Positions 19,906-44,262 of a DNA stretch of 64,000 nt are shown here, in pieces. Made by a program: the position numbers and the translations under genes. This DNA is from Candidatus Thorarchaeota archaeon (GTDB lineage: Archaea > Asgardarchaeota > Heimdallarchaeia > Hodarchaeales > Hodarchaeaceae), in contig JBHLRO010000006.1 in the NCBI GenBank assembly GCA_048882505.1, positions 25,485 through 89,484 of the forward strand, given 5' to 3'. The notes below the pieces were generated by a model. The model saw nothing but the letters and a program-made list of their open reading frames with translations, ran no database searches and was not told the origin of the DNA. How positions within the stretch are numbered: position 1 is the stretch's first letter; each line of letters opens with the position of its first letter.

Positions 19906-21408
19906 TCAACTAGGGAAATACTCGTAATCGTTACGAACTTTAATTGAGTCCGCAATATAATTTTCAATCATTGATTTCTCAATTTTTGTTCCGAAAGAAG
20001 AATTGGCAGCCACGATATTCTTCCATTCCATGTAGTTTTCTTGGATTTCATTTTTGATATGGACAATTCGTTCTTCTAGCCTTGCCTGACCTAGATTTTG
20101 AACCACTGACCTAGCCTCGTCTACTTTTTCAAGTGCTTTCTCAATGTTTCCACGAATCAGCCAGATCTGTGCCTTAATGGCGAGAATTTCTGCCAATAAA
20201 GAGTTAGATTTTAGGTTGTCCGCGATTTGATACATTTCGTCTGTTAGACCATGCAGTTCGTTAATGACTTCGTCATCCTCAGCGATCTTCAGTTCAAGGA
20301 TTAAGAGAGAACATAAATTGAGATAGATGTCTATCTTTTCATAAGCAGATAAATTCTGAATTGTGAGCAATTTCTTAAAAATTGCCTGGCTTCTAGCCAG
20401 GTTCCTTACTCTTTTCCCTTGCATCGTTAGAAGTGCGTCAGTAAATTCGCAGAAATATGCAATCCTCTCCGAACGTGTCTGATTATAGAGTTCCTTTAAT
20501 TGTTCGTATTGGAATTTGGCTCCATCTATATTATTCTGACTTAGCTCGATCAACGCCAAATCTTTCAGGTCGTATCCCACAGAGTGATACATTTCCGTGT
20601 CCATTCTAATTTTTTTCGCCTTAGTAATGAGTTCTGCGGCTCGTTCATTATTTCCTGCTTTGAAATAGACTCTACCCAGTACTTCATGATAACACGCAAC
20701 TGCCCAGAGGGTACATCGTTCTTCGACAACCTGTAACGCCTGCTCACCATATTTCAGTGCTTCATCAAGCTCTCCTTTTCGTAGATGGATTTCGGATAAG
20801 GTTCCATATTGACAACACAGATAAGGTTTCTCAGTAGTTAATGCGATTGCAATACTCTTATGAATGCTTGAAATTCCCTTTTCCAGATCTCCAATTTCAC
20901 AATACATATTCCCCATGTCATTATACAACTTGGTTAGGATGTAGGGAAGATCTGCTTTCTCTCCAATGGCAATCGCCTTTTTCATGTAGTTTATTCCATC
21001 TGAATATTTCCCTTCAGCAAGGGCACAAAATGCCCTCACTCCATACGCGGTTGCCGCCCAAACCATTCCCGCTCGGTCTTCTGGAAGCGGATTTTCTTCA
21101 ATTTGCTTTAACACACCATCAATCACCTTGGTTGCTTCAAATCCCTTGTATTCGCGGAGTAACACCCTGCTTTGGACGATTTTCAACATCAGGTTTTCGA
21201 ATGGCGGTAATTCTCCATACTCTCTGTTAATTATAGGTGCAATGAGACTCCGTACTGTTGTTAAATCTCCGTGTAGAATTGTGAAAAATGCGTCATAGAT
21301 ATCGCCCTTTATTTGGTTTTGTTTCTTCAGCTCCTCTATTCGGTCATATGCTTGATTAATATTTCCCCCCCAAAAATCGGAAAAGATGTGATATTCCAAC
21401 TTCATCAT
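19906..21408 (-). CDS. TPR/alpha-solenoid repeat protein
   Basis: 500 aa with repeated 34-aa-like helical hairpins carrying W/L/G/Y/A/F/A/P-type positions (e.g. AIAIALTTEKPYLCCQYGTLSEIHLRKGELDEALKYGEQAL; LGRVYFKAGNNERAAELITKAKKI). No TM segments. It is divergent from the Rab-like GTPase gene. Confidence 0.55.
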   Translation of the reverse strand: MMKLEYHIFSDFWGGNINQAYDRIEELKKQNQIKGDIYDAFFTILHGDLTTVRSLIAPIINREYGELPPFENLMLKIVQSRVLLREYKGFEATKVIDGVLKQIEENPLPEDRAGMVWAATAYGVRAFCALAEGKYSDGINYMKKAIAIGEKADLPYILTKLYNDMGNMYCEIGDLEKGISSIHKSIAIALTTEKPYLCCQYGTLSEIHLRKGELDEALKYGEQALQVVEERCTLWAVACYHEVLGRVYFKAGNNERAAELITKAKKIRMDTEMYHSVGYDLKDLALIELSQNNIDGAKFQYEQLKELYNQTRSERIAYFCEFTDALLTMQGKRVRNLARSQAIFKKLLTIQNLSAYEKIDIYLNLCSLLILELKIAEDDEVINELHGLTDEMYQIADNLKSNSLLAEILAIKAQIWLIRGNIEKALEKVDEARSVVQNLGQARLEERIVHIKNEIQENYMEWKNIVAANSSFGTKIEKSMIENYIADSIKVRNDYEYFPS

Positions 21409-21923: not shown

Positions 21924-22553
21924 TTGGTAAAGGTTTTTGAAGGAGGAGAACCCCTCAAAATTGAACAGGTGGAAGAGCTGAACATAGACGAAATAATCCT
22001 CAAGATCTGCTCTATCGGTGATTACCAGGTGGGTAAAACCAGTCTTATTCACAGATATGCAGAGAATGTATTCAGTGAAGATTATTTACCTACCTTGGGG
22101 GTTGATATTACTACGAAACGTATTATTGTAGATGATACACCGATTAAATTGATTTTAATGGACACAGCAGGACAGGAACAGTTCGGTCGTATTCGTCGGT
22201 CGTATTTCCTAGGATGTGCAGGTTGTCTGATTGTCTACGATGTTACAAGGCGCGATTCTTTTGAATCTCTGGAACGATGGGTCAGAGAGTTTCGTTCCGG
22301 ACAACAACGAGAGAACAAGCCCATTGCGATTATAGGGAATAAGAACGATCTTAAGCAGGAGCGTCAGGTCGGGCGGCAGGAAGGGGAATCGTTTGCCAAG
22401 GTCATGGCAAATGTCTCCTTTTACGAATGTTCGGCGAAACTAGGGGGTCCTGAAATCCCCAGAATTTATGAAAATATTTCTCGTCAATACCTCAAATCGG
22501 TTCAATCGGGGCGGAATAGGGGGGACAAGGAACCGACTATGGTAACCCGATGA
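21924..22553 (+). CDS. Rab/Ras-like small GTPase
   Basis: 209 aa. Motifs: G1 GDYQVGKTSL, switch I LPTLGVDI, G3 DTAGQE, G4 GNKNDL, G5 ECSAK. The start is uncertain (TTG at 21924; a GGAGGAG ribosome-binding site sits at 21942-21948). Confidence 0.85.
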   Translation: MVKVFEGGEPLKIEQVEELNIDEIILKICSIGDYQVGKTSLIHRYAENVFSEDYLPTLGVDITTKRIIVDDTPIKLILMDTAGQEQFGRIRRSYFLGCAGCLIVYDVTRRDSFESLERWVREFRSGQQRENKPIAIIGNKNDLKQERQVGRQEGESFAKVMANVSFYECSAKLGGPEIPRIYENISRQYLKSVQSGRNRGDKEPTMVTR

Positions 22554-22885
22554 GACCATCGATTTCAAAGGCGGAGACTCCACGTACTACCAGCATTTTT
22601 TCGGCCGCTACACCGAGATCAGGATTGGATGGTTTCTATCACGGTTATCCGTAAAGCTACTCCCCTCTTGATTCGTTAGTTTTTATCAAATCCGCTTAAA
22701 TTACCTGATTGGTTTGTTTGCTTGGAAGATGAGCAAAGCGGCTTTGGAATTGGATCGACATTCAAGGGCGTCCTGCACAGAGAGCATCCAACAAAGCTCG
22801 GTTGCTCAAAGAATTCATCTTATGTCCTCTGCCAAGAGTACGTTGACTTTCCCCCTTAATCGATGTATCTGATCATTGAGAAATA

Positions 22886-23329
22886 TTAAGATAATTTTCT
22901 GACCTTCTTAAGAATTAAGACAAGAATAAAGGCCGTCAAACCTGAAATAAATCCGATTAAAATGATCGGTAAGTAGGATTGTGCCAATTTGGTGTAATAG
23001 ATTCCAAAAATATATGGGGAAGTCGAATCGTACAGAGAACCGACCATTTCGCCTGCAATAAGCCAACCTACTGTAATTAATGCGAATAATATCACAGGCC
23101 ACAAGACTGCGGAAAATATCGAGTGAACTATACTACCATTATTGATAGAAAATGAATTCCCACTGAGACTTTCAATAGTAATTGAGTCTGCAAGACTCCA
23201 AACTGATACCGACGGTTGCGCGAGGATGAAAAAATATAATATGCCGAGTAAGTACCATATCACAATCCATAAAGGCAATACAAAACCAATAGGTCGGTAT
23301 TTTATCGAAATATCTCTCTTCTCATGCAT
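22886..23329 (-). CDS. small integral membrane protein (4 TM)
   Basis: 147 aa with four hydrophobic helices. It lies between two GTPase genes. Confidence 0.4.
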   Translation of the reverse strand: MHEKRDISIKYRPIGFVLPLWIVIWYLLGILYFFILAQPSVSVWSLADSITIESLSGNSFSINNGSIVHSIFSAVLWPVILFALITVGWLIAGEMVGSLYDSTSPYIFGIYYTKLAQSYLPIILIGFISGLTAFILVLILKKVRKLS

Positions 23330-23676
23330 CTTGAACCCTTGAGGTAATTAACAAAAAACGGATATTTAAAGCATCCGCAAGTGTTCTTGGGCTCCCAAAG
23401 GGACTCCCTTTGAAATCCTTGAGCTACATCTGATTTTGGAGTTTTGAACAGCTACATGTGTCCAATACGTGCAATTATGATTCAATAGTTTCCATTAGAC
23501 CAATATGTCTATCCTTACTGTGTTCAAAACATATTAGAAGGAAAATAGCTTCAATTGGGGGAAAGAAATGGACAAAGAGGGATTCCATGCCTTTTTACTT
23601 ACTGGGATGAAATTGCTCCCCTCTGCATTGTTTTATTTGAGAATCTTAAAAAAATTGGACAATAAAACTAAACTAG

Positions 23677-24564
23677 ATGAGCAGGATGACCACTCCAAGT
23701 GGAATTTATAGCGTGATGATATACAGCCTAGAATCACGTCGCATTCTCATTCATCGAATATATTCTCGGGATGAATCTGTGGTTAATAATCTAGACACGC
23801 TTTATTCAACCATTGTGTCCTTTAAAGGTGAAAACGAGGGGAAAGAAGATGTGTCAACGTTTCCAATGAAAACTAGAAAAATCTTAATTACTTCCGCTGA
23901 AAACTTAATCTTCATGATTGTGGTTGCACCCCATTATGGAACTATCGAAGCGGAAAAAATCCTATCTCATATCAGGGCATCATTTTTCCGTAAATATCCT
24001 CTTGGTGATTGCAACTGGCATTTTGATGAACACATGAACTATCTCGTGGGATTTAAAGCCGTCATAGATGAGATAGTGGAACACTTCGGCGACCCAAAGA
24101 CCATAGTAAAAATCGTGCTGATGGGAATAGACTACGCGGGCAAAACGACGTTAACACATGCTTACGCGGGGAGTAATTATCGAGATTATCTCCCTACAAT
24201 GGGACTGGACATTCTAAGAATAGAATACAAGAATAAACACATTCGTTTATGGGATCTTGGCGGGCAAATGCTGTTTAGAAGCTTATGGCCTAAGTTTGCG
24301 AATGAAGCATCTGGAATAATTTTTGTCGTTGATTCAGCCACAACCCGGTGGAGCGAAACCAAAGAAGTATTTGAAATCTCTCTGCTGTTTAAATTACCCT
24401 ATATCATATTTGCTAACAAACAGGATATAGTAAAACGAGCACAAAGCATTAACTTCATTGCGGAGAGGTTACAAGTTCCTGAAGAAAAAATAGTAAAAGG
24501 GAGTGCTTTATTGAACAAAGGGATCTATGAAGTCTTAGATGGGTTACTGGATGAAATTGGTTGA
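23677..24564 (+). CDS. Arf-like small GTPase with N-terminal longin/roadblock-like domain
   Basis: 295 aa. The N-terminal ~135 aa show beta-beta-alpha-beta-beta-alpha-like alternation (IYSVMIYSLESRRILIHRIY / VVNNLDTLYSTIV / ILITSAENLIFMIVVAP / TIEAEKILSHIRASFF). The C-terminal G-domain has G1 GIDYAGKTT, switch I PTMG, G3 WDLGGQ and G4 ANKQD, which are the Arf/Arl-type forms of these motifs. Confidence 0.8.
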   Translation: MSRMTTPSGIYSVMIYSLESRRILIHRIYSRDESVVNNLDTLYSTIVSFKGENEGKEDVSTFPMKTRKILITSAENLIFMIVVAPHYGTIEAEKILSHIRASFFRKYPLGDCNWHFDEHMNYLVGFKAVIDEIVEHFGDPKTIVKIVLMGIDYAGKTTLTHAYAGSNYRDYLPTMGLDILRIEYKNKHIRLWDLGGQMLFRSLWPKFANEASGIIFVVDSATTRWSETKEVFEISLLFKLPYIIFANKQDIVKRAQSINFIAERLQVPEEKIVKGSALLNKGIYEVLDGLLDEIG

Positions 24565-24627
24565 GCACTTAATTGTCTAAATCAAAGAGGAAGTGAATGT
24601 TTTTAGCCATTAAAGGAAGGTCTAAGA

Positions 24628-26361
24628 ATGATGGAAACATCAGAAGTGGCTACGATTGAGAAATTGCAGGAAAAGCTCAAATTCCGTCGAAAAGTTGAAA
24701 GGGCGATTGGGGATATTTCGACTTATCTTGTTTTTTCAAGTAGTTTCAACCTGTCCATCGAATATTTCCTCTCCGAAATCGCAGAACTATACCATTTCTA
24801 TTTTGTAGATGGGGCAGCTGTTTGTTTATTTGATGAACCTTCTAATGACCAAATTTCGGTACTTGGATGGAATTCAGAAAAAAATATAGATAATCGTGTA
24901 AATCTTAAGGAATTTCCGATTGGAAATTTCATCTGGTTCCAAAACCAGATCAAAGCAGGGCGCGAACTTGTTCTCACTGAAACTTATGAATTCTCGAATG
25001 AGGCCCAACCAGAAAAAGCCTTTTTTAGTGAACATACTATCAAATCCCTCATCGCAATCCCTATCTTCACTCCTGAATATATTGCGGGTACATTTGTGCT
25101 GGTTAGCCTATCCAACCAGGTGTGGCAGGAGGAAGATCTTCGTACCCTTAGATTGTTCGCTGAACTTTTGGGTACAGCAATCTTTCGAAAAAAAACGGAG
25201 GAGACGCTTTCAAAGGCGAGAGACTATTTAAAGGCTCAAATTGACCGAAAAACTGAGGATTTAAGCACTGAAAAGCAAAGAATCGAATTGATCCTGAATA
25301 CAATAAAGGATGGAGTCATCGTACTTGATCAAGATGGGAAGGTGACCATGGCTAATGAAACCTCAAAGCGATTTTTTAATCTGATTATGGATTTGCCGCT
25401 GATTATAGGCGTTAACCTAGTTTTAAGCACTGGAAATACGTTTTTTAGAACCATAAGAGGTCTCTTTTTGTCGTTTTTTAAAAACGAAGTGACAATTGAA
25501 CCTAAAAAGGGACTCCATCTTCAAATTGCCTCGGCTCGGGGAAAATATCCTGCCCTTCATACCTCCGGCATGATAATTGAGCTTCGAGACGTTACAGCGT
25601 TTATAGAGTTTGACAATATGCGAAAGCGATTCGTTTCTACCGTGAGTCATGAACTTCGAACCCCGATTACGGTTATTAATCAGTCCATCAATAATTATGA
25701 GAAATATGGAAATAAACTGCCAGAAAAGACCAAAACGAAATTATTCTCTGCAATCGCACGGAATTCCCGACTGCTTTATGAACTGGTGGAGGACCTACTT
25801 TTGATTTCTAAAATAGATGAACGAAGGATCGATGAGAGAGGATTTGAGCTCCATTGGCAGGACTACGATATAAAACAGATTATAGATGAAGTCACAACGC
25901 AATTAGAGCCCAGGGCCAAGGCCAAGGATATTAATATCCTTAAATCGGGTTTTGTGAAAGCGCCTATGTTTGGGGACCCGAATCGTGTTGCTCAGATATT
26001 TCGTGCATTAATTGATAATGCCATCAAATATTCTGGCAGTTCAAGTATAATTAGGATTACAGGAAAGGATGATTATACGGGAAAATACAATACGCAGGGA
26101 ATAAATGGAATTCTTGTTAAAGTTATCGATTCGGGGATTGGAATAGACGGGGAGGATCTACCAAAAGTATTTAATAGATTTTTTCGGGCCAAAAGTGTAA
26201 GTCACATATCGGGAACAGGATTAGGGTTAGGTATTGCTCGTGATCTTGTGAAGATGCATAAAGGGGAATTGTTTGTTGAAAGTGCCTTAGGAAAGGGAAC
26301 TATTACGCTTGTGTTTTTGCCTAGAATCACCGAGGCCGAGTTAAGACCTGAAGAGAGCTAA
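24628..26361 (+). CDS. cytoplasmic sensor histidine kinase (GAF-like + PAS + HisKA + HATPase_c)
   Basis: 577 aa with no TM segments. PAS: LILNTIKDGVIVLDQDGKVTMANETSKRFF. H-box: VSHELRTPITVI. N-box: DNAIKYS. G1: DSGIGI. G2: GTGLGLGIARDLVKMHKGELFVES. Confidence 0.9.
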   Translation: MMETSEVATIEKLQEKLKFRRKVERAIGDISTYLVFSSSFNLSIEYFLSEIAELYHFYFVDGAAVCLFDEPSNDQISVLGWNSEKNIDNRVNLKEFPIGNFIWFQNQIKAGRELVLTETYEFSNEAQPEKAFFSEHTIKSLIAIPIFTPEYIAGTFVLVSLSNQVWQEEDLRTLRLFAELLGTAIFRKKTEETLSKARDYLKAQIDRKTEDLSTEKQRIELILNTIKDGVIVLDQDGKVTMANETSKRFFNLIMDLPLIIGVNLVLSTGNTFFRTIRGLFLSFFKNEVTIEPKKGLHLQIASARGKYPALHTSGMIIELRDVTAFIEFDNMRKRFVSTVSHELRTPITVINQSINNYEKYGNKLPEKTKTKLFSAIARNSRLLYELVEDLLLISKIDERRIDERGFELHWQDYDIKQIIDEVTTQLEPRAKAKDINILKSGFVKAPMFGDPNRVAQIFRALIDNAIKYSGSSSIIRITGKDDYTGKYNTQGINGILVKVIDSGIGIDGEDLPKVFNRFFRAKSVSHISGTGLGLGIARDLVKMHKGELFVESALGKGTITLVFLPRITEAELRPEES

Positions 26362-26449
26362 AAGATTTGAGTTTTGATAGCTTTTTAAGAACGGAAAGGA
26401 GAAGTCAAGTGAGTAGAGTACGGAGGCCCGAAGGATTTCAGACTTAATT

Positions 26450-26815
26450 ATGGTCGTAGAAGACAATCCTGATGTTTTGTTTAATCTAGTGGTAACGCTT
26501 GAAGCTAATGGATATGAAGCAGAAGTTGCCACAAATGGTAAGGAAGCCACAAGAGTTCTGTTGAAAAAAGATCCCGAATCACTACCAAGTCTAATAATCA
26601 GTGATATTATGATGCCGGAAATGGACGGGTACGAATTCTACCAATTTTTACAGGGGGATCAAGCATACAAGCATATACCCCTAATCTTTCTCTCCGCCCT
26701 CGCGACACCAGATGATATTCGCTTTGCGGAAATATTGGGTGCCAAAGATTACATAACAAAACCATATAATGAAGAAAAGTTGCTTACCTTGATTAGAGAG
26801 AAACTGGACGGGTAA
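26450..26815 (+). CDS. single-domain CheY-like response regulator (receiver only)
   Basis: 121 aa. MVVEDNPDVLFNLVVTLEANGYEAEVATNG...LIISDIMMPEMDGYEF...YITKPYN contains the phospho-acceptor Asp (DIMMP) and the conserved Lys (TKP). It lies 88 nt downstream of the HK gene on the same strand. Confidence 0.85.
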   Translation: MVVEDNPDVLFNLVVTLEANGYEAEVATNGKEATRVLLKKDPESLPSLIISDIMMPEMDGYEFYQFLQGDQAYKHIPLIFLSALATPDDIRFAEILGAKDYITKPYNEEKLLTLIREKLDG

Positions 26816-26822
26816 GTGATCC

Positions 26823-28067
26823 TCAAAATTCATAGAGGCCCCAACTGGCCGAGACTGTTCTCGGTTGTTGATCCACATGGATTCGTATGATTCTAGAGAA
26901 CCCGAAAACGTTTCCTAGACCTGTTAATAACCCTTCGATAACCCCTATAATTAGAAGTGAGCTTCCTTCTCGTGGTATCTCGATGTCTACCTGCATTCCA
27001 CCAGCAATATTACTTATTTCCACCCCAATTAGCTGATGAACTGGTTTATCCAGCATTTTACCTATATTTCCAGATAACCAATCCCTGAAGATATTGTTTG
27101 CCAGACTTTCGCCATAAGGAACGGAGAGCGCCTTAATTTTTTTCCAAAACTCTTTCGAGTCCGATTCAGGAGCTAGCTCTCCAGATAGGGTTTTCCATAC
27201 GTGGTTCTGAGTCTCAAAGAATATCGAACTTCTTAAAACATTGATCAATAGATCTTGGGGAATCATTCGGGCTAGAATTCGCATGAAGGCCAAGTAAAGA
27301 GAATCATCCAAGATGGAAGAAAGGAATACAGAATAACGGGGCCAGATAAACAGACCTTTAAAAGCCTTTAAGAAGTCTAAGAGATTGGGTTGGAGCTCGC
27401 TCACCTTGTTAGGATCATACTTATGAGCTAATAATCCGATGAAGGGCGATTCCTTCATTGCTTTGAGAACATTCATAATATCGGTTAGGTAAATGTACGC
27501 CTCTTCGAATTCGGCTGGGTTTTGGATATCAACCATGAAAATTAATGCTGTTAGGTTTTTCCACTTAAATTCGTCATAAACATGTTTTTTTACGTATTCC
27601 GTCTGTCCGCCTAAATCAAAAATGGTTAATTCAGTTTTTAAAACGTCTATGAACGAATTAAAAATAGAATAATCGACAGTTGGTCTGATCCTATCCAACT
27701 GTTCTTTGTTCCAGGAATCAAAAAATCCACGAATGGCTGTGGTCTTTCCTGCTTTTCTTAATCCTGCAACAACTATTTTAGGAAGTTTCCTCCTGGGTTT
27801 CTGAGAGGGAGGTGCGGGCAATTTGAATTCATGCGTAAACCATTCATCGAAAAACGAGTCAACTTTCTCTGTAACCTCAGGTGTAATGAAATCCAACTCT
27901 TGGTCTTTGAATCGCTCTTCAATACTATTCCCCAGATTTTCAATTATCGGATAGAGATCGTCCGAACTAGTACCTAGTGGAGTCATGACTGAGACCAGTA
28001 CAGAAGCGAACCTTTTTACATGTAGTTGGGAATTTGAAAAAACAAGCTCCTGAATGTCATCTTTCAC
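26823..28067 (-). CDS. Rag/Gtr-like small GTPase with C-terminal roadblock-like domain and N-terminal extension
   Basis: 414 aa. Motifs: G1 VVAGLRKAGKTT, G3 FDLGGQ, G4 LAHKYD. The HKxD form of G4 (instead of NKxD) is diagnostic of the Rag/Gtr family. The C-terminal ~150 aa carry a roadblock-like strand/helix pattern (VHQLIGVEISNIAGGMQVDIEI...SSLLIIGVIEGLLTGL). There is an N-terminal extension of about 95 aa. Confidence 0.7.
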   Translation of the reverse strand: MKDDIQELVFSNSQLHVKRFASVLVSVMTPLGTSSDDLYPIIENLGNSIEERFKDQELDFITPEVTEKVDSFFDEWFTHEFKLPAPPSQKPRRKLPKIVVAGLRKAGKTTAIRGFFDSWNKEQLDRIRPTVDYSIFNSFIDVLKTELTIFDLGGQTEYVKKHVYDEFKWKNLTALIFMVDIQNPAEFEEAYIYLTDIMNVLKAMKESPFIGLLAHKYDPNKVSELQPNLLDFLKAFKGLFIWPRYSVFLSSILDDSLYLAFMRILARMIPQDLLINVLRSSIFFETQNHVWKTLSGELAPESDSKEFWKKIKALSVPYGESLANNIFRDWLSGNIGKMLDKPVHQLIGVEISNIAGGMQVDIEIPREGSSLLIIGVIEGLLTGLGNVFGFSRIIRIHVDQQPRTVSASWGLYEF

Positions 28068-28548
28068 GATTTCCTTAGAGAACTGAATTAATGCCGAAAG
28101 AAATCCCGATATTAGCTGACTGTCATGGTCCAGAAAGAACGAGGGTTCAAAGTTTTTTTGATAAAGCTCTATCCCTGTGTCAATGTTTATGACTGAAATC
28201 CGTTTAATGGAAGATTGAGAAGGATCTGACGTCGTTGATTTCGCTCCAGTCTGCGAAGATTGAGGATTACAACTTACGTTATGAATACTTTAGTCGAGAA
28301 ATATCCCGTACAATGTATTTCCGAACTGGAATACTATGATGTTCATGTGACCGATTCTCCTTAAGGGTGAAGGAAATTCGTCTGATGCACTGAAACTTGT
28401 CAAACCATATTTATTAACTTAGTCATATTTATCGATTTCAGAAATTCTCTAGCAGGTTTTCAAATGTTCACTAAAAGCAAAATGTTTTGAAGAAGTATTG
28501 ATATGATAAAGAAAGCATAAGTGAACGATCCCCATTGGAGTGAAGTAA

Positions 28549-29268
28549 ATGGGAAAAGACAACAACGGTCAGGAATACGAATCGTTTTATGATCTTTGGG
28601 AACGTATAAAAAGCGAAGAATTAACTATTTTACCAGAAGAATCCAAAACCCATATTGAAGAGAATTTATTCCTTGATGAACAAGGAGGGGAGTATTTTAT
28701 GAAGATTGTATTAGCAGGGGATGGTGCCGTTGGAAAAACTTCCTTAAGACGAAGTTTTTTAGGCGAGGATTTTTCATTTGACTACCAAACGACAATCGGA
28801 GCCGATTTTGCCACCCATCGGGAACAAATAGCCAATCGATCCGTGAAATTTGTAATTTGGGATCTGGCAGGCCAACCCCAGTTTCATCAGGTAAGAAAAA
28901 CGTTCTATTCCGGGGCACACGGAGCACTTGTTGTATGTGATTTAACCAATCCCACCTCGTTCGAAAACCTGAAGCACTGGATAAATGAACTATGGCGATA
29001 CAATGCGGAAGGGCCCGTGCCCTTTGTCATTGTGGGAAACAAATGCGATCTTAGGGATTTGGGATATGCAAGAATTTCTGATAAAAAGATTCATTCTGTT
29101 ACAAAAATCATTAATGAAGAAACCTCACGGAAAAGTGGGTTTGGCGTCAAATCCATTACCACAAGTGCACGAACGGGGGAAGGAGTAATAGAAGCGTTCA
29201 AGCAGTTAGCTGTCCAAATTATTGCACATCGTAACTACATCAGGAGAAAGCGTCAAAAACCCGAGTAA
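28549..29268 (+). CDS. Rab-like small GTPase with ~50-aa N-terminal extension
   Basis: 239 aa. Motifs: G1 GDGAVGKTSL, switch I YQTTIGADF, G3 WDLAGQ, G4 GNKCDL, G5 TSAR. Confidence 0.85.
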   Translation: MGKDNNGQEYESFYDLWERIKSEELTILPEESKTHIEENLFLDEQGGEYFMKIVLAGDGAVGKTSLRRSFLGEDFSFDYQTTIGADFATHREQIANRSVKFVIWDLAGQPQFHQVRKTFYSGAHGALVVCDLTNPTSFENLKHWINELWRYNAEGPVPFVIVGNKCDLRDLGYARISDKKIHSVTKIINEETSRKSGFGVKSITTSARTGEGVIEAFKQLAVQIIAHRNYIRRKRQKPE

Positions 29269-29363
29269 CCTGCGCGTAACTAATGGACGAATTTCAGATG
29301 GTAATTCTGTTTAAGAAAAATTGCTGTCCATGGTAGAAAAGACTTCTACGAAACGTTCCGCAG

Positions 29364-30263
29364 CTAGCGTAAATTAGAGGAGGTAGTTGATAGAATTTTG
29401 ACAAAATTATCCCAGTTCAGATTCTCAGAGAACTGGTTTCCGTGCTTATAGTCTGTTGCCATCTTTTCAAATTCCTCCTTTATTCTGAGGGACGCGAGAT
29501 AGTTAATTTTCTGAGCTAGAAGGACGATCATAAATTGGCGTTTGCCCCCTCTAACTTCTGGATCTTCAATCGTATCAAAGTAAATATAGCCGTCTCGGTC
29601 GATGTTTGCGATTCGTAATAAAACCCCTTGTGGCTCATAATAATCCAGCTGGCCGTAGACTGAGACCGCGGTTTGAAACAGCTGGGTGCCAAGCTGGCGT
29701 AAGTCAAACTTAGTGTTGGAATCTGATGGAAAGATATCTCTTACTTTGGGACCATAAGCTTCATCCCATATCACATTAAAGAGTATAACTTCTCCTCTTT
29801 CACTTGGGGTCATTGAAGAACCGAGCTCATTTCGCAAGGATGTAAGCAGGTTTTTTTCGATTTGTTTACCCAGTTCTTTGTTTTTTATACTCCGCTGGAT
29901 CTTTCCGGCAATTGATGATAACAAATCCTTGTCGTTGAAGGGTTTGGTGATATAATCATCTACTCCAAGTATTTTGCCAAAACGTACATCCTCAGGAGAT
30001 GCTTTCGCTGTAAGAAAGATAAAAGGGATAAAACTCCACGCCGGGTTATCAGAAACACGGCTGAAAAATTCGTATCCGTCCATTTCCGGCATCATGATGT
30101 CACAGAGGAAGAGGTCTGGGGGTTCATCGAGTTCAGATAACATGTTGAAGGCTTCGATGCCATTTTTTGCGCCTATCGGCCTGTATCCATTGAATTCCAA
30201 CAATAATTCCAGGTTGTAGAGGATTTTAGCATTATCTTCAATGATAAATATTGTAGGTTTCAT
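29364..30263 (-). CDS. response regulator: receiver domain fused to C-terminal roadblock/longin-like alpha/beta domain
   Basis: 299 aa. The N-terminal REC is MKPTIFIIEDNAKILYNLELLLEFNGYRPIG...LFLCDIMMPEMDGYEFF...YITKPFN, with high identity to the 26450 receiver. The C-terminal ~150 aa show a beta-alpha-beta-beta-alpha pattern (EVILFNVIWDEAYGPKV / LRQLGTQLFQTAVSVYGQL / GVLLRIANIDRDGYIYFDTI / RQFMIVLLAQK / INYLASLRIKEEFEKM). It lies 52 nt downstream of the hybrid HK on the same strand. Confidence 0.75.
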   Translation of the reverse strand: MKPTIFIIEDNAKILYNLELLLEFNGYRPIGAKNGIEAFNMLSELDEPPDLFLCDIMMPEMDGYEFFSRVSDNPAWSFIPFIFLTAKASPEDVRFGKILGVDDYITKPFNDKDLLSSIAGKIQRSIKNKELGKQIEKNLLTSLRNELGSSMTPSERGEVILFNVIWDEAYGPKVRDIFPSDSNTKFDLRQLGTQLFQTAVSVYGQLDYYEPQGVLLRIANIDRDGYIYFDTIEDPEVRGGKRQFMIVLLAQKINYLASLRIKEEFEKMATDYKHGNQFSENLNWDNFVKILSTTSSNLR

Positions 30264-30315
30264 TTAATTACCCTGAATTGTCTCTAGATCACAGTTAAGT
30301 CGAGTTTTTCTTCCC

Positions 30316-32394
30316 CTAATTGACCAATACGGGGAGAAAAACTGAAAAAGTTGATCCTTTGCCTAATTCGCTGTCCACGAAGACTTCCCCGTTTTGAATT
30401 GCTGCTAATTCCTTTGCGATCGATAATCCCAGCCCGGTTCCAGGCACATCCTTCACATTGCTTGCTCTGAAAAAGCGATCAAATATATAGGGCATGTCCC
30501 TTTCACTTATGCCGATTCCAGCATCATTAACTTGAATTAATAGACCATCAAGTTTTTTCGGGTTGTATTTCCCCTGATAATCAGTTATAGCCCCAATCGT
30601 AACAGTCGTTCTTTCAGCAGAGTATTTAATGGCATTATCCATTAGGATGCGTAACATTTGGCCAAGTCTTTTCGAATCTCCCACTATTTCAACTGCAGGA
30701 GGTATATTGGTGCTAATTGTGATATTCTTTACCAGTCGTGCGGGCTCTAATTGGATTAATACTTCGCTTATAATGTCCCAAAGCGCATATGTGCTTACAT
30801 CCAGCTTCAATTCACCGCTCTCTATTCTGGATACGATCAAAAGATCTTCTATCATTTGATTCAGAACAGTAGAACTCTCTGCAACCATATCAACAATACT
30901 ATCAATCTGTGCCGCTGATAACTGGTCGCGGTAGTTCTGTAAATTCCTAATTGAGAGGTCAATCGCGGTAATTGGAGTTCTGAGTTCATGAGACACCATT
31001 GAGATAAATTGCTCTCTGAGTCGATCCAGTTCCACCAGAGAAGTCACATCGCGGACTGTGATTACAATGCCAATAGGAGGGTTTGGTGGATTTAATACCA
31101 TAGAGGAGGTAAGCTGAAGGAAAAGCCCTGGGTGAGGCTCGATGGTTTTGTATTCCTTCTTTTGAGAAAAAAATGCCTTGGCAATCGCCTCGCCAAATGG
31201 ATGTCCGATACTGGGGATATCGCGGAGGAGTGGAGGTAACTCCTTGTTATAAATCCTCTTGTAGAATTTCTTGAATATTTCATTAACATAATAAACTCGG
31301 CCTTCAGTGTTAAAAACAACGACCCCATCAGGGATGGTTTCCACAATCCTCTCAATTCGCTGTTTTTCTTCCGTTAAGTTTTGTGTGGCTATTTCGACTT
31401 TTCGTGCCAAGGAATCTTTGGTTCGTTTTAACGCTTCTTCAGCCATCTTCCGCTTGGTGATGTCTTCAAAACTGCCTTCATAGTATAATACCGACCCCTG
31501 TTCATCTTTTATTGCTTTCGCATTCTCCCGGATAAAGACCGTGGAGCCATCCAGTCTCTTAAGCTTCTGTTCAAACCCTCTAATCTCGTCTGCTCTCTCG
31601 ATCAATTCCCGAAAATCTTGTCTCGGATAGTCCATCTTGGTCGATAACTCATTCATATTAATGGCACGCATTTCTTCCAATGAGGAAAACCCCATCATTC
31701 GTATGAATTCGGCATTTGCTGCAAGTAGCTTTCCGCCTGGTGTCATTCGATAAAGTCCGATGGGCATACCTTCAAATAACGTGCGATACCTTTTTTCGCT
31801 TTGTTTAAGCGCTTCCTCCATTGATTGACGCTCAATGAGTTGATCTCGGAGTTTATTAACTAATTGCCTTCTTTCTTTCTCCAGATGCAGCCTCTCAAGG
31901 GTATCCCGGATCTTAATTAGCACATCCTGGACATCAAAGGGTTTAACTATGTAAGCTGATGCCCCCATGTTTAGGGCACCGATTGCTGATTCCTGTGACG
32001 CATATCCCGTTATGATCATCATCACAAGATCTGGTTGCAATTCCTTCATCACTTTTAACAAGCGAATGCCATCAAGATCAGGTAATCTAATGTCTAAAAG
32101 GGCAATATCGTATATTCTTTCTTTCAGCTTATCCATAGCATCTTTCCCAGTATATGCGGAATTCGCAATATATCCGGCTTTCTTAAAAATTAGTTTTAGT
32201 AAACTACATGTATTATCATCATCATCATCTACGATCAGAATTCTCCCTGTGATCTTATTGTAAGTACGTTGAATAGTTCGGGCAGATTCATCTAGAATGG
32301 ATTTGTCAAGTTCTTTAAGGTTTTCTGCGTTATTTAGAAGTAATGAGAAATCCTTTGGCGAATTCGTGTTTTGATGTTCCCTGTTATTTTCCAT
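30316..32394 (-). CDS. cytoplasmic hybrid sensor histidine kinase (REC + 2xPAS + HisKA + HATPase_c)
   Basis: 692 aa. REC: GRILIVDDDDDN...DIALLDIRLPDLDG...IVKPFD. PAS: KRYRTLFEGMPIGLYRMTPGGKLLAAN and QRIERIVETIPDGVVVFNTEGRVYYVN. H-box: VSHELRTPITAI. N-box: DNAIKYS. G1: NDAGIGIS. G2: GTGLGLSIAKEL. Confidence 0.9.
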   Translation of the reverse strand: MENNREHQNTNSPKDFSLLLNNAENLKELDKSILDESARTIQRTYNKITGRILIVDDDDDNTCSLLKLIFKKAGYIANSAYTGKDAMDKLKERIYDIALLDIRLPDLDGIRLLKVMKELQPDLVMMIITGYASQESAIGALNMGASAYIVKPFDVQDVLIKIRDTLERLHLEKERRQLVNKLRDQLIERQSMEEALKQSEKRYRTLFEGMPIGLYRMTPGGKLLAANAEFIRMMGFSSLEEMRAINMNELSTKMDYPRQDFRELIERADEIRGFEQKLKRLDGSTVFIRENAKAIKDEQGSVLYYEGSFEDITKRKMAEEALKRTKDSLARKVEIATQNLTEEKQRIERIVETIPDGVVVFNTEGRVYYVNEIFKKFYKRIYNKELPPLLRDIPSIGHPFGEAIAKAFFSQKKEYKTIEPHPGLFLQLTSSMVLNPPNPPIGIVITVRDVTSLVELDRLREQFISMVSHELRTPITAIDLSIRNLQNYRDQLSAAQIDSIVDMVAESSTVLNQMIEDLLIVSRIESGELKLDVSTYALWDIISEVLIQLEPARLVKNITISTNIPPAVEIVGDSKRLGQMLRILMDNAIKYSAERTTVTIGAITDYQGKYNPKKLDGLLIQVNDAGIGISERDMPYIFDRFFRASNVKDVPGTGLGLSIAKELAAIQNGEVFVDSELGKGSTFSVFLPVLVN

Positions 32395-32411: not shown

Positions 32412-32813
32412 TCAACCGTAGTGTTCTATTCCTTCAGCTTTCACCGTTTGCCAAAGTTCCCTAAAGAACTTAGAATCACTTGCGCAGTATAGACGGTATA
32501 TTTTTCCGTCATCAAAGGATTTAAGGAAAAACGAGTGGCCCGACGTGATTCGCAAAAATCGTAGCCAGAACTGATGTAGAATCTTCTGAATGGGATTTGT
32601 TTGCCCATGAAATCCAATTGAGAATCTCGAGGTATTTCGTGGAACAAGAATTAAGCCATTAGATTCAATTTTAAAAGATTCAAACAAGTATAATGAGAAA
32701 AGGATAAGAATTAGGGGTATCCGTTGGCGATAAATTGTTCTTTCATTTCTATTAACTACCATGGCAACTTTGCTCCAGAAGTAGTTGTTACGGAAAAAAA
32801 TGGAGAAATGCAT
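32412..32813 (-). CDS. hypothetical small protein (weak)
   Basis: 133-aa ORF in an ~840-bp region that has no strong gene. It overlaps a + strand ORF (32724-33029). Neither has recognisable motifs. Confidence 0.2.
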   Translation of the reverse strand: MHFSIFFRNNYFWSKVAMVVNRNERTIYRQRIPLILILFSLYLFESFKIESNGLILVPRNTSRFSIGFHGQTNPIQKILHQFWLRFLRITSGHSFFLKSFDDGKIYRLYCASDSKFFRELWQTVKAEGIEHYG

Positions 32814-33238: not shown

Positions 33239-34684
33239 ATGATACATAGCAATTCCCAACAATCACCCGCAGTTCAACAAGTAGAACTATCGTTTATTAG
33301 TGATTTCACTAAATATTGGGACAAAATTAGGGATTTCTGTTCTGTTGAAAGGAGTACAGTTCGTTCTGTGTGTGCTAAACTATTTGAGGATTGGACAAAA
33401 CCTTTTTTCGAGAGGTGGTCAACAACAGAACTAATCAAACCTTACTTGGTTTGGCGAAGTAATTATGCTTCCCGATTTTCTTCCTTCGGTCTTCTGTATA
33501 ATGGGAAAATGCTGCTTATACCTCACAAACTCGTTTCTAATATTCTGGACTCCCAGGTCAGGGAGCATGTGTACTTTAGGGAGTTTACAGACATTAAAAC
33601 CTTCTTCTATTACCTATGGCAAGTAACTCAGGTTCAACAGAATTTTCCTCTAAATGCAAGTGATCTGAAACTTATCAGTTTTTATACGAGTTCGGGTTTT
33701 ATGAGAACTTCTGCGCGATTCCCCTCGCAAGAACTATTAGCCGACGTGCTTTCTTGTAACCCAAGAACCATTTCTACACGAAGTACGCGGTTGTACAACC
33801 ACTACATCCTAACACATACATATTTAATCGATGTTGCCAAACTGGGTTATCAAACCATGGCATTTCTCTCACAAGATCCTTCAGATATACACGGTTCTCT
33901 TACGAAATATTGCCTTGGAACCCTTCCGATTGACTTAGGATTAACTCGGGGAAATCTAAAGATTTTTCAAATTCCGTATTGGAAACATGATGTTTTTAAC
34001 GCCGTTACTGATAGTTTAGGCCCTGTTGCGGGATATAATTTAACCCAATTATCCATCAGTTGGAACCTCAGCCAGTTATCGACAAACCCAGACTCAAGAT
34101 GGTTAAACGAACCACCAGTTCTCGTTGGAATCGCCTGGGATGATACAGACATCATTCTGGAGGATATTGGGGTCGATCTTAATTTGGTTCCAGATATCCA
34201 ACAGAGTCCAGGAATCTCGAAATCACAAGCCAAACTATTGTCCTTTTACTATTCCCACGGCACAGTTCAAGATAAACAACTATCAGAATTCCTTGAATTA
34301 GACCCTCATAGTGTTTTTCGCCTTTGGCAAGACATTTTGGATAGAAACGTGGCGTACCCGTATACACACGTCAGCAATATAGGTTTAGATTTGTCTCTGT
34401 GGGTGATGCTTCTCGGAAAAACGAAGCAAGACAATTCGGATCTCGTTTCAAAAGTCGTTGCTCACCTTCGCTATTTCCCATATGCACGGACATTCTATTC
34501 CTCAGGGAATTCGAACGAGGGTACGTTTTTGGTTGCAGAGATTAGAATTCCGTCACTTTGGTATAAGGATTTTGCTACGCATTGGGACAACCTTACTAAT
34601 TACGAATTAATCCCCAAAGTGGGCGTATTAACACCCGAATTTCACTTGAAACGAAATATAAATGTTTTAGACACTCTTTTTTAG
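33239..34684 (+). CDS. hypothetical protein with two HTH-like modules
   Basis: 481 aa, soluble. Contains a repeated module: LKLISFYTSSGFMRTSARFPSQELLADVLSCNPRTISTRSTRL and AKLLSFYYSHGTVQDKQLSEFLELDPHSVFRLWQDILDRNV (LSFYxS...helix-turn-helix-like). Confidence 0.45.
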   Translation: MIHSNSQQSPAVQQVELSFISDFTKYWDKIRDFCSVERSTVRSVCAKLFEDWTKPFFERWSTTELIKPYLVWRSNYASRFSSFGLLYNGKMLLIPHKLVSNILDSQVREHVYFREFTDIKTFFYYLWQVTQVQQNFPLNASDLKLISFYTSSGFMRTSARFPSQELLADVLSCNPRTISTRSTRLYNHYILTHTYLIDVAKLGYQTMAFLSQDPSDIHGSLTKYCLGTLPIDLGLTRGNLKIFQIPYWKHDVFNAVTDSLGPVAGYNLTQLSISWNLSQLSTNPDSRWLNEPPVLVGIAWDDTDIILEDIGVDLNLVPDIQQSPGISKSQAKLLSFYYSHGTVQDKQLSEFLELDPHSVFRLWQDILDRNVAYPYTHVSNIGLDLSLWVMLLGKTKQDNSDLVSKVVAHLRYFPYARTFYSSGNSNEGTFLVAEIRIPSLWYKDFATHWDNLTNYELIPKVGVLTPEFHLKRNINVLDTLF

Positions 34685-34861: not shown

Positions 34862-36046
34862 TCATAATGCCGAATACACGGGGACAACTGGGAACGTTTC
34901 GCGAACTATTCGATTTAAGGTTTCTGACTCTTCAGTAGAGGAATCCATCTCTGGAAAAGTTTTATATAATGACGCAATACGATTGGTTAAGATATCTAGC
35001 GAGTTTTTAAGAGCTTTAGAAGTGGTAGAAGTGACTATAATATAGCTAAGATTCTGTTGACGGTTTATTAAAAGGACTGAATCCTCCAGATGTAGTTCAT
35101 GAAGACCTGAGGCAAGAGCGTCAACTACTGCTTTCATTCCTGGAAAAAAGGCATCTCGATTGTGATGGGGAACTGTGATCCAACTGTACGAAAAGAGTGG
35201 TTCCGTAGTGTCCGTGCGGATAATTACGAGTCGTGAGGAGTGAATGGGTAATACAAACAATAGTTTGGGTTCTGAGACAAAGGCAATCATGAAGAGAAAA
35301 GATCCAAACAAATGGGCTATTTCTATAAGTCCAATGTCTTGACCTACCAGTTGGGTAAACAGCATAATGAGAGCAAGAAGATACACAAACGCTCCTATCA
35401 ATGCAATACTAGCCTTGTTCCTTATATCATCCGGTGCATTCAGGTAGAGAGTCCCCGTGTACAGAAGCAAGAGAAGGATTCGAAACCCCCAGAAGGAGAG
35501 CTGGATGTAATTTAGAAACACTGACACCGTCCTGGCCTCCACACCAGGAAGTAATGCGAAGACCACCATTCCAGTCGAGAGGATCGCGTATACGATTAGC
35601 TTAATGGGATCTAAGGATGGCCGATGCGCGGAATCGACAAAGATAACCAAGAATATGGTAAATCCAGTCAAAATGAAAAATCCCGCAAAACCAAGAACAT
35701 CTGCGAGGGTCATGGATAATACTTCCCCCTTACTCGTTACTTTATACAGAGGAATCCCAATATCGGTCATTAGAACATTTATTGATAGGCTATTGGGATC
35801 AAAACCAAGTAAAAGAATTTGTAATCCAAGTAACATAAACCAGGCAAACAAACCAGCAAAATCCAAGGAAAGCCACAAGAATTGCCTGTATTGCGTATCT
35901 ATCCATCTTCTAAATCCAAAAACAAGGATTATGGAGATTATAAAGGCATGAAACAATGATATCAAGGAAATAAAGAGGAAATCTGCCATTACTTTCAAGT
36001 CCTCTGGCATAGTAAGGATAGATTGCCCTTCCTTGCCCCCCTCCAC
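34862..36046 (-). CDS. polytopic membrane protein with C-terminal cytoplasmic roadblock/LC7-like domain
   Basis: 394 aa with about 8 TM helices in residues 20-290. The C-terminal ~100 aa show the pattern RLVIIRTDTTEPLFSY / FPGMKAVVDALASGL / SVLLINRQQNLSYIIV / KALKNSLDILTNRIASLY, matching roadblock beta-alpha-beta-beta-alpha topology. Confidence 0.5.
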   Translation of the reverse strand: MEGGKEGQSILTMPEDLKVMADFLFISLISLFHAFIISIILVFGFRRWIDTQYRQFLWLSLDFAGLFAWFMLLGLQILLLGFDPNSLSINVLMTDIGIPLYKVTSKGEVLSMTLADVLGFAGFFILTGFTIFLVIFVDSAHRPSLDPIKLIVYAILSTGMVVFALLPGVEARTVSVFLNYIQLSFWGFRILLLLLYTGTLYLNAPDDIRNKASIALIGAFVYLLALIMLFTQLVGQDIGLIEIAHLFGSFLFMIAFVSEPKLLFVLPIHSSRLVIIRTDTTEPLFSYSWITVPHHNRDAFFPGMKAVVDALASGLHELHLEDSVLLINRQQNLSYIIVTSTTSKALKNSLDILTNRIASLYKTFPEMDSSTEESETLNRIVRETFPVVPVYSAL

Positions 36047-39395: not shown

Positions 39396-40005
39396 GGTTG
39401 AAACCTAGCGTATTCATGGAAATGTCTCTCAAATAGAGCATTCATGTTATATCTGAGTTTGATTGGATATTTCATTAGGGGACTTCTGATGGATTTAGTG
39501 GATTTCCTTAATACTTAAATCCAGAGACGGCAAAGGCTGTGGAGGAGAATTTCCAGGTTATCGAACTACCTTTAGTAAAAACATTAAGAAAAGAGTACAA
39601 ATCAAAATCCCTATTTGGTGGAAAAACAAGCCATCAACGACAGACGAAGGAAGCAGGATCTGAAAATACTTAGTCGTCTTGACAAAGTCTATTGCTGCAA
39701 CGCCCACTGGTCCTTTGGTAAAGATAAAGAACAAGTTGAATTTATTTTGAGGAAGAAGGAGGAGAGTGGGATAGTACCATGCCCATTACCAGGGCCAAGC
39801 TGTTGGATGGAATTTTAGGAAGGTACTCAAGATCATAAACGGAGTCCAGTGACCTCTCCGCGGCAGTTCTGACAAATAAAATGCATTAGACCAAACAATG
39901 GAAGAGATGTCAAATCCGATAAACACGTCTAGTCCTAAAGCCGCTGTGGAGATTAAAGAAGTTAGGTCTATTCCACATCAAAAAATGCCCAAAAGATATT
40001 GGGCC

Positions 40006-44185: not shown

Positions 44186-44262
44186 CCCAAAATACGAAAT
44201 TTTCTTTAAAGGCGCGAACGAACCCCTAACAAGCATCACCGCCCAATAGCCCTTCAATAGCG

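Follow-up and report, generated by a model that had tools for sequence, protein, structure and literature searches.

Which small GTPases do the longin proteins of Asgard archaea act on, and what might control them? The two prior lines of work on such proteins (Liu et al.; PMC12290439) stop short of naming their partners. We analyzed a 64-kb stretch of an Asgard archaeal contig (JBHLRO010000006.1; this whole stretch is referred to as the window), in which genes for small GTPases, histidine kinases and receivers lie together at 21.9-32.4 kb, one of them encoding a receiver protein, receiver-X, with a longin-like output domain. The cluster is a real, conserved and testable system, and it is best read as two cytoplasmic two-component systems, paralogous to each other, that are connected to small GTPases of eukaryote-like type. 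It offers named candidates for the partners (one kinase, one receiver-longin protein, and Arf-, Rag- and Rab-like GTPases). These are inherited together across Hodarchaeales-type genomes, some of which have them fused in single chains. The association of a receiver-longin protein with a GTPase cluster suggests a route by which phosphorylation could control eukaryote-like GTPases, and it provides a small, directly testable biochemical system for a general evolutionary idea, namely that the GTPase regulators of eukaryotes are older than eukaryotes themselves and worked at first under prokaryotic phosphorelays. A first-pass annotation of this DNA proved largely right at the gene level, while two domains had been mislabelled in it as roadblock-like.

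A conserved cluster of two-component and GTPase genes

Domains were called with Pfam on each open reading frame (ORF). The ten ORFs described in the first-pass annotation were all present in our ORF list, each with exactly the same coordinates, and those encoding GTPases, kinases and receivers are the following:

21924-22553, + strand: Ras209, a Rab-like GTPase, peripheral (Pfam Ras, 2e-47)
23677-24564, + strand: LArf295, an Arf-like GTPase (Pfam Arf, 1e-28, on residues 134-293) with a 133-residue N-domain lacking a Pfam assignment
24628-26361, + strand: HK577, a soluble histidine kinase (Pfam GAF, PAS, HisKA, HATPase_c)
26450-26815, + strand: REC121, a stand-alone CheY-like receiver (Pfam Response_reg only, 1e-23)
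26823-28067 as annotated, with a GTG start, and to ~28232 at full length, - strand: Rag467, a Rag-like GTPase (Pfam Gtr1_RagA, 8e-18)
28549-29268, + strand: Ras239, a Rab-like GTPase (Pfam Ras, 3e-40)
29364-30263, - strand: receiver-X (REC-X), with Pfam Response_reg on residues 5-118 of 299 only
30316-32394, - strand: HK692, a soluble hybrid kinase (Pfam REC, PAS, PAS, HisKA, HATPase_c)

Pfam agreed with the earlier assignment of four small GTPases (two Rab-like, one Arf-like and one Rag/Gtr-like) as well as of two soluble histidine kinases and two receiver proteins, neither HK577 nor HK692 having a credible transmembrane (TM) segment by hydropathy. Within the window, genes for GTPases, kinases and receivers were found nowhere outside 21.9-32.4 kb. 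The two kinases are paralogs (2e-86), as are REC121 and the REC domain of receiver-X (5e-34); the SHELRTP H-box is intact in both kinases, and both receivers keep the phospho-acceptor Asp together with the T and K residues. HK692 precedes receiver-X by 52 bp on their common strand, and REC121 is the presumed partner of HK577. For comparison, the genome of the Asgard strain MKD1 is taken as ~4.4 Mb in size. It encodes 74 small GTPases (Tran et al., PMC10933270), and at this density (74 per ~4.4 Mb) the Poisson probability of four GTPases falling within 10.5 kb is ~4e-5.

Homologs of receiver-X and the Rag-like protein served as anchors for collecting loci, whose ORFs were scored against the window proteins. 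Eight independent loci were compared, namely the window, L001, L003, L006, L007, L017, L019 and L020; L004 and L005 have the same protein and gene order as L003, and L018 likewise as L017, and these were not counted separately. Seven genes recurred in the window and the seven other loci: the Arf-like gene, the GAF-PAS kinase, the CheY-like receiver, the Rag-like gene, the Rab-like gene, receiver-X and the REC-PAS kinase. Receiver-X and an adjoining HK692-like kinase were found in all eight loci, an HK577 ortholog (>600 bits) followed directly by REC121 in seven, a Rag467 ortholog and a Rab-like gene in seven each, and an LArf295 ortholog in six, with the missing genes falling mostly at contig ends. 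LArf295, HK577, REC121 and Rag467 were contiguous in every locus holding all four (6/6), and the receiver-X/kinase module lay at most ~10 kb from this four-gene block. Since gene order and orientation differ among the loci and protein identities are 45-65%, the association reflects retained linkage and not recent common descent of one contig. This synteny carries more weight than the density estimate.

Because the gene set is syntenic in other genomes, the cluster is not a chance juxtaposition, and the neighbourhood check put forward in the first-pass annotation was thus decided by a set kept in eight independent loci. The same synteny, together with the natural fusions described below, bears out its proposal that the GTPases and the two-component systems form one unit, and we regard it as very probable that the seven genes constitute one functional system. 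Of the four GTPase genes in the proposed island, the Arf-like, Rag-like and Rab-like (Ras239) genes are conserved members of the cluster, and the first Rab-like gene, Ras209, is not.

The named loci among the eight are Hodarchaeales/Hodarchaeota metagenome-assembled genomes. All named close homologs of the core genes (45-64% identity) come from Hodarchaeales/Hodarchaeota, as do both matches in species-representative genomes; NCBI labels the contig of the window, which has 165,639 bp, as part of a Candidatus Thorarchaeota metagenome-assembled genome, a label that may be wrong. One metagenome sample, ERZ25074855, yields both L001 and a second, different copy of the cluster, L017, and a DDE_Tnp_ISAZ013 transposase is located at L001 1-560, a few kb from that cluster copy.

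Receiver-X and its longin-like output domain

The receiver of receiver-X spans residues 5-118, with D10, D55, T85 and K107 conserved. In an AlphaFold2 (AF2) model with a mean predicted local distance difference test (pLDDT) score of 81.5, the receiver is followed by a long linker helix (residues 111-146) and a C-terminal domain, the features of which map to the window as follows:

29379-29789, - strand: output domain, residues ~159-295, GAP-longin-like
29748-29768, - strand: the W166-D167 and G171-P172 motifs
29550-29552, - strand: R238, a candidate arginine finger

The canonical longin order of strands (b) and helices (a) is b1-b2-a1-b3-b4-b5-a2-a3, and the roadblock fold (a-b-b-a-b-b-b) begins with a helix. 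The modelled output domain showed the order b-b-a-b-b-b-a-a (b160-167, b171-178, a188-203, b212-218, b223-233, b241-250, a255-273, a280-292), opening with two strands as a longin does and a roadblock does not. Robl_LC7 gave no Pfam match on any ORF or on the isolated domains tested, and residues ~135-299 alone had no Pfam or PDB sequence match. The receiver-roadblock-like fusion described in the first-pass annotation therefore stands insofar as a receiver is joined to a member of the roadblock/longin superfamily, with the modelled topology being that of a longin and not of a roadblock.

Conservation was computed over 169 family members. W166 (131/137) and D167 (108/138) occupy the b1-b2 turn, and G171 (133/139) and P172 (130/139), at the start of modelled b2, make up a GP motif that is ~95% kept; R238 (127/156) and R242 (64/163, with K in a further 37) lie in the b4-b5 hairpin, where they share a sheet edge with the GP motif. 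Such a motif directly ahead of b2 is reported to be specific to the longins of the GTPase-activating proteins (GAPs) FLCN, NPRL2, SMCR8 and C9orf72, in which it stands beside the arginine finger, and it is absent from the TRAPP, adaptin and DENND longins (PMC12290439). The essential W33-D34 of C9orf72 is placed five residues ahead of G38-P39 (PMC12290439), and W33/D34 of C9orf72 and R147 of SMCR8 are required for Arf1 GAP activity (PMC8213707). The W-to-G spacing in receiver-X is also 5, as in C9orf72 W33-D34...G38-P39 (W-D-x3-G-P). The sole PDB match of the output-domain profile was the C9orf72 longin domain (E=0.26), in an end-to-end alignment that keeps the WD and GP motifs in register; hhalign of the output domain gave P=5e-4 with a probability of 31% over 125 columns, and Pfam Folliculin matched 3 of 13 isolated output domains at ~0.05, below the cutoff. 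From the modelled topology and the family alignment, we conclude that the output domain is probably a longin bearing the motifs that mark GAP longins.

Among solved structures the best match of receiver-X was PDB 12aw_A (a 279-residue 'hybrid two-component system protein'), which covers query residues 4-154, the receiver and part of the linker, and has ~125 residues beyond the matched part. The NCBI name of the protein, 'PleD family two-component system response regulator', is based on the receiver alone and is unfounded.

A word-indexed search returned 19 homologs, nearly all of which, besides short fragments, consist of REC plus the output domain, and an exhaustive profile search with the output domain returned 296 clusters at E<=1e-3. 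Atypical members of the family were scanned with Pfam for fusion architecture, and the combined Pfam and profile matches revealed the following:

P0097: PAS-HisKA-HATPase-REC-longin
P0103: HisKA-HATPase-REC-longin
P0138: HATPase-longin
P0170 and P0184: REC-Arf GTPase-longin
P0186: longin-TPR

These fusions independently join the longin domain to kinase, receiver and Arf-type GTPase parts, and they support a probable functional connection between the two-component and the GTPase parts. In the Heimdallarchaeote LC_3 (MDVS01000037.1; L015 4728-8212), a 567-residue protein (P0170) and a 573-residue protein stand in tandem, both with REC and Arf Pfam content; of the two, P0170 alone had a match to the longin domain.

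Tandem receiver-longin paralogs of ~297 and 308 residues were present at L006 1168-3042, L017 17396-19270 and L019 19075-20936, and also in L008 and L009; the window has a single copy. Their arrangement suggests that the tandem paralogs may form heterodimers. A division of labour in which one paralog provides the Arg and the other the WD pair, as in SMCR8/C9orf72, was rejected, since both keep the WD, GP and RGGxR motifs.

The GTPases and their accessory domains

LArf295 is the first gene of the run of Arf-like, kinase and receiver genes. Its G domain (residues 134-293) carries the motifs GIDYAGKTT, WDLGGQ and NKQD (ANKQD), and its best PDB matches were Arf1, Arl2 and Arl3. Eukaryotic Arf and Rag GTPases require an arginine finger supplied in trans, and the catalytic Gln (DLGGQ) is kept in the Arf-like and Rag-like proteins of the cluster. 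In place of the N-terminal amphipathic (myristoylated) helix by which Arf binds membranes, LArf295 has a conserved, globular-looking N-domain of 133 residues, which is included in the orthologs at 58% identity and which alone gave no Pfam, PDB or homolog-search match. The N-domains of LArf295 and Rag467 are both conserved in orthologs, lack the GP motif and display, by eye, a strand-strand-helix-strand pattern; hhalign placed the two in register over 92 columns with a probability of 1.7%, which is not significant, and the alignment of the Rag467 N-domain with the receiver-X longin was not significant either. It is plausible that both N-domains are longin-like, as the first-pass annotation had it (longin/roadblock-like) for LArf295. 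Asgard Arf-like proteins with N-terminal longin domains have been reported (PMC11914678), as have Asgard Arf-like and Rag-like GTPases with an N-terminal longin (bioRxiv 10.1101/2020.10.19.343400; PMC10933270; PMC11914678).

Rag467 matched Gtr1_RagA with 65 bits against a Pfam cutoff of 22, and its PDB matches include Gtr1/2 and RagA/C. The G4 motif is AHKYD, with H215, K216 and D218 invariant in 22 homologs, in agreement with the Rag/Gtr-like GTPase with an HKxD G4 motif annotated before. Three domains were distinguished:

~27780-28232, - strand: N-domain, ~140 residues, possibly longin-like
~27273-27779, - strand: G domain with the HKxD motif
26826-27272, - strand: C-domain, 149 residues, TRAPPC3/V4R/H-NOX-like by AF2 and Foldseek

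Homologs of Rag467 have 467-470 residues, whereas the canonical ORF in the window has 414; the NCBI protein MFW9854899.1 is this shortened form. Ahead of the annotated GTG, 55 in-frame codons (28068-28232, - strand) encode the conserved N-terminus SQSSIKRISVINIDTGIELYQKNF..., and the Met of the homologs aligns to an ACG at 28232-28230. Because the homologs are longer and the upstream codons encode the conserved N-terminus, the true coding region is ~26823-28232. The frame holds no ATG, GTG or TTG from the upstream stop as far as the GTG at 28067, and the start could be mutated or non-canonical, or a base-call error could be the cause.

The AF2 model of the C-domain (pLDDT 76, predicted TM-score (pTM) 0.73) has the order a-a-a-b-b-a-b-b, with four helices and a sheet of four strands. 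Foldseek returned H-NOX (3e-3), the TRAPP chain 3kxc_C (probability 1.0, TM-score 0.49/0.53), TPC6 and BcsD/CeSD, and the matches overall were TRAPPC3/5/6, Trs31, V4R (DmpR), H-NOX and BcsD/CeSD, with modest fold-search scores; no roadblock, LAMTOR, MglB or Rag-CRD structure occurred in either fold-search list. Profile searches of the N- and C-domains, and of the LArf295 N-domain, against PDB sequences and Pfam gave chance-level matches only. With moderate confidence, resting on the modelled fold, we consider the C-domain to be TRAPPC3/V4R/H-NOX-like. Since it has no invariant Cys or His, Zn or haem binding of the V4R/H-NOX kind is not indicated. In Rag/Gtr GTPases a C-terminal roadblock domain (CRD) mediates dimerisation; the roadblock-like C-domain that had been proposed for this protein was rejected on the AF2 model and on fold searches without roadblock matches.

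For the two Rab-like GTPases this call is borne out by the G domains, which among solved structures match Rabs best. Ras239, which has a 50-residue N-terminal extension, matched best to the Thorarchaeota Rab 7ezb, Rab1a, Ypt31/32 and Rab11; L001, L003 and L007 contain strong orthologs (248-300 bits), and the Rab-like genes of L006, L017 and L019 are weaker matches. The best PDB matches of Ras209 were Ypt6, Rab2 and Rab7, with 7ezb among its solved relatives too, and its sole best-match gene in the compared loci was an 86-bit small GTPase in the unrelated Heimdall LC_3 locus L015. The Rab-like proteins end in …PTMVTR and …KRQKPE, and neither Ras239 nor Ras209 has the C-terminal Cys of a prenylation motif.

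A possible mechanism, its alternatives and the surroundings of the cluster

We lean, with no great confidence, towards a conserved signalling supercluster in which the Arf/Rag-like GTPases are acted on by a longin GAP encoded beside them, itself gated by a phosphorelay; the role of the longin specifically as a GAP, as read from its sequence motifs, is a tentative assignment that we hold with slightly more doubt than belief. In such a system, HK692 would autophosphorylate on a cytoplasmic cue and phosphorylate D55 of receiver-X, as the two-component paradigm and the invariant adjacency of the two genes would have it. Phosphorylation, transmitted via the long linker helix, may change the dimerisation or the exposure of the longin domain. 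As suggested by the motifs, fusions and synteny, the longin would cup LArf295 and/or Rag467, supply an arginine, likeliest R238, and trigger GTP hydrolysis, with R238 completing the GTPase active site as SMCR8 R147 does for Arf1. The phosphorelay would thereby set the GTP/GDP state of the switch. More speculatively, HK577 and REC121, contiguous with the Arf-like and Rag-like genes, probably constitute a second input, in which phosphorylated REC121 could bind a GTPase accessory domain or compete for phosphoryl groups, and the accessory domains of Rag467 might serve in dimerisation, in ligand binding or as a platform for the Rab-like Ras239.

Several observations weigh against this proposal. The similarity between the output domain and the GAP longins of eukaryotes does not reach significance (E=0.26), the C9orf72 match did not improve with the larger 169-sequence profile (E=1.7), and the full receiver-X model yielded only receiver-domain matches in a Foldseek search against PDB, so the longin assignment rests on topology and motifs. 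R238 is kept in 81% of the members and not in all, and we infer its equivalence to the fingers FLCN R164, NPRL2 R78 and SMCR8 R147 from position only. Full-length Rag467 is without a canonical start codon in the window. Distant receiver-longin members, always beside a kinase (L022, L024, L025), adjoin KaiB/KaiC-like genes of clock type at L022 3023-8927 and L024 133-3862, and RsbR/RsbS/RsbT/SpoIIE stressosome-like genes plus a kinase at L025 3495-8879; a GTPase is present near the member at L022, and none lies within 8 kb at L025. Because distant members sit beside Kai- and Rsb-like genes, one of them without a GTPase, the GTPase link may be subfamily-specific. The receiver-longin family is a general two-component output module of which the tight GTPase cluster marks one subfamily, and the Kai-like and Rsb-like neighbours suggest other inputs to the same output domain. 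Lastly, longin platforms are more often guanine nucleotide exchange factors (GEFs) or scaffolds than GAPs (PMC13408092).

This last point leads to an alternative that we place on the unlikely side, in which the longin of receiver-X is a phosphorylation-controlled GEF, scaffold or effector-type platform and not a GAP (compare TRAPP, Mon1-Ccz1, Ragulator and MglB-like proteins). Such a role would accord with the prevalence of GEF platforms among longin and roadblock dimers (PMC13408092), with the sub-significant similarity to GAP longins, with an R238 that is not invariant and with the TRAPP-like parts carried by the neighbouring Rag467; it is harder to reconcile with a GP motif that is reported to be specific to GAP longins (PMC12290439) and is ~95% conserved here along with the WD pair and the hairpin Arg.

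A more far-reaching version of the phosphorelay-gated GAP, which we consider distinctly unlikely, takes the cluster as a prokaryotic-style forerunner of Rag/Arf nutrient signalling, that is, a GTPase cascade with a built-in TRAPP-like platform in Rag467 besides the gated longin GAP. This platform, made up of the longin-like N-domain and the Bet3/V4R-like C-domain, would sense a small ligand and/or exchange on the Rab1-like GTPase. If this were true, GAP, GTPase and TRAPP-like GEF would have been wired together before eukaryogenesis.

It is quite improbable that the genes are co-located through local paralog expansion in GTPase-rich genomes, with two-component systems and GTPases that do not interact directly. 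Asgard genomes do contain dozens of small GTPases (PMC10933270) and many kinases each, the kinases and receivers here are paralog pairs, and gene order and orientation vary among the loci; however, an orthologous set persists in 8 independent loci at 45-65% identity despite rearrangements, REC-Arf-longin and kinase-REC-longin fusions exist as single chains, and the rest of the 64-kb window is free of such genes. Effectively refuted is the view of receiver-X as a PleD/WspR-like protein with a degenerate GGDEF domain (RGGxRQF resembling RxGGDEF), engaged in second-messenger signalling or in none: the NCBI product name and some REC-GGDEF structures among the Foldseek matches, in long alignments of very high root-mean-square deviation, speak for it, but the NCBIfam PleD model matches only residues 4-121, within the receiver, with 71 bits against a cutoff of 474, Pfam scans of 13 isolated output domains gave no GGDEF match even with the threshold at E<=10, and the modelled b-b-a-b-b-b-a-a order is not that of the GGDEF palm fold.

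The phosphorelay-gated longin GAP that we favor can be set beside several known systems. FLCN-FNIP2 (for RagC/D), the GATOR1 subunits NPRL2-NPRL3 (for RagA/B) and C9orf72-SMCR8 (for Arf) resemble receiver-X in longin topology, GP motif and WD pair (C9orf72), with the conserved hairpin Arg of receiver-X as a candidate counterpart of their finger, and they serve Arf and Rag GTPases, the same two classes that the cluster co-encodes as candidate substrates. Unlike these complexes, receiver-X has neither a DENN domain nor a large partner subunit, and its longin is fused to a receiver and paired with a kinase, which would place it under control by His-Asp phosphotransfer, where the eukaryotic complexes respond to amino-acid/lysosomal cues; the homology is below significance. 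Because the fused domain looks like a GAP longin and not like an MglB-type roadblock, GATOR1, folliculin and C9orf72-SMCR8 are a better analogy than the MglA/MglB/RomR counterpart proposed in the first-pass annotation. The Myxococcus MglA/MglB/RomR-RomX system shares with the cluster a small GTPase, a roadblock-superfamily GAP and a receiver-domain protein; it differs in that receiver and GAP are separate, MglB is a roadblock and the MglA-type GTPase has an intrinsic Arg, and the GEF role of RomR-RomX, which the same annotation took as given for RomR, is now contested (PMC13408092).

The earlier statement that this is not a described system was too strong. In Asgard archaea, Liu et al. (2020/2021; bioRxiv 10.1101/2020.10.19.343400) reported many NPRL2-like longins fused to two-component domains, from which they proposed growth control centred on two-component systems, and 'Folliculin/SMCR8 longin' proteins of Asgard archaea with a GP motif and an arginine finger have been described, with their partner GTPases posed as a question (Traffic 2025, PMC12290439). 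A possible GAP activity had likewise been proposed in this earlier work. These proteins are of the same kind as receiver-X, combining a GAP-type longin with two-component domains, whereas the seven-gene cluster and the REC-Arf-longin fusions are absent from both descriptions. Longin-two-component fusions and GP-motif Asgard longins were thus already known, and the seven-gene cluster with its GTPases is what is added here. Within an incomplete coverage of the literature, which makes for weak evidence, we found no description of the seven-gene cluster, none of a GTPase-TRAPPC3 fusion (a Rag-type G domain with a TRAPPC3/V4R-like domain instead of the CRD), and no use of REC-Arf-longin fusions as evidence for partners. 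Small-GTPase expansion, longin/roadblock-fused GTPases and TRAPPC3 homologs are established in Asgard archaea (bioRxiv 10.1101/2020.10.19.343400; PMC10933270; PMC11914678).

The actinobacterial conservon comprises the CvnA kinase, the CvnB roadblock, CvnC and the CvnD GTPase, with a membrane-bound kinase and no response regulator (PMC4316618). Like the cluster, it unites a histidine kinase, a roadblock/longin-superfamily protein and a small Ras-superfamily GTPase in a conserved operon; unlike the cluster, it has an MglB-type roadblock, an MglA-type GTPase and the membrane-bound kinase, and lacks the response regulator. The thaumarchaeal REC-NitrOD3 (Galperin et al. 2018) is, as receiver-X is, an archaeal response regulator with a Roadblock/LC7-superfamily output, but it belongs to another lineage, its domain is roadblock-related and no GTPase context has been reported for it. 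The Rag467 C-domain recalls the TRAPP core (Bet3-family plus longin-family subunits; the Rab1/Ypt1 GEF) and the Asgard TRAPPC3 and longin-TRAPPC3 proteins (Tran et al. 2024). The structural relatives of Thor-TRAPPC3, which has four helices and a four-stranded sheet, are TRAPPC3/C6, PoxR V4R, H-NOX, AxCeSD and soluble guanylate cyclase (Tran et al. 2024, PMC10933270), and the matches of the Rag467 C-domain overlap strongly with these; a Rab1-like gene adjoins Rag467. In contrast to TRAPPC3, the domain is fused C-terminally to a Rag-like G domain and is without a conserved Zn-binding Cys or haem-binding His.

Two further genes had been annotated around the first Rab-like gene:

19906-21408, - strand: TPR500, a TPR protein divergent from Ras209 (Pfam TPR_2, TPR_12, TPR_MalT)
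22886-23329, - strand: TM147, a 147-residue membrane protein with three hydrophobic stretches (3-4 TM)

Both had been put forward as candidate effectors, and neither is conserved beside the cluster. In the compared loci, Ras209, TM147, the TPR protein and the ORFs of 133, 481 and 394 residues described below had no conserved counterpart near the cluster. L003 has a TPR protein at a distance of ~8 kb from the cluster, and L001 has a TPR-kinase; the TPR protein was rejected as a cluster member, as its adjacency is not conserved among the compared loci, and it is a possible accessory. TM147, earlier described as a 4-TM protein, is indeed a membrane protein, with three hydrophobic stretches by hydropathy; it had no Pfam or NCBIfam match and no homolog in any related locus, and it is probably unrelated to the cluster.

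The flanks of the cluster encode a PEBP protein, an FtsX permease, a solute-binding protein and large beta-helix proteins, with unrelated functions. Beside HK692, the ORFs at 32412-32813 (- strand, 133 residues), 33239-34684 (+ strand, 481 residues) and 34862-36046 (- strand, 394 residues) had no Pfam match, and the first two had no NCBIfam match; the 394-residue protein is strongly hydrophobic, with multiple TM segments. Three large proteins encoded at 36525-45570 (+ strand) contain either NosD/right-handed beta-helix repeats or DUF7948 with an SBBP beta-propeller and fn3, and they are probably surface proteins unrelated to the cluster.

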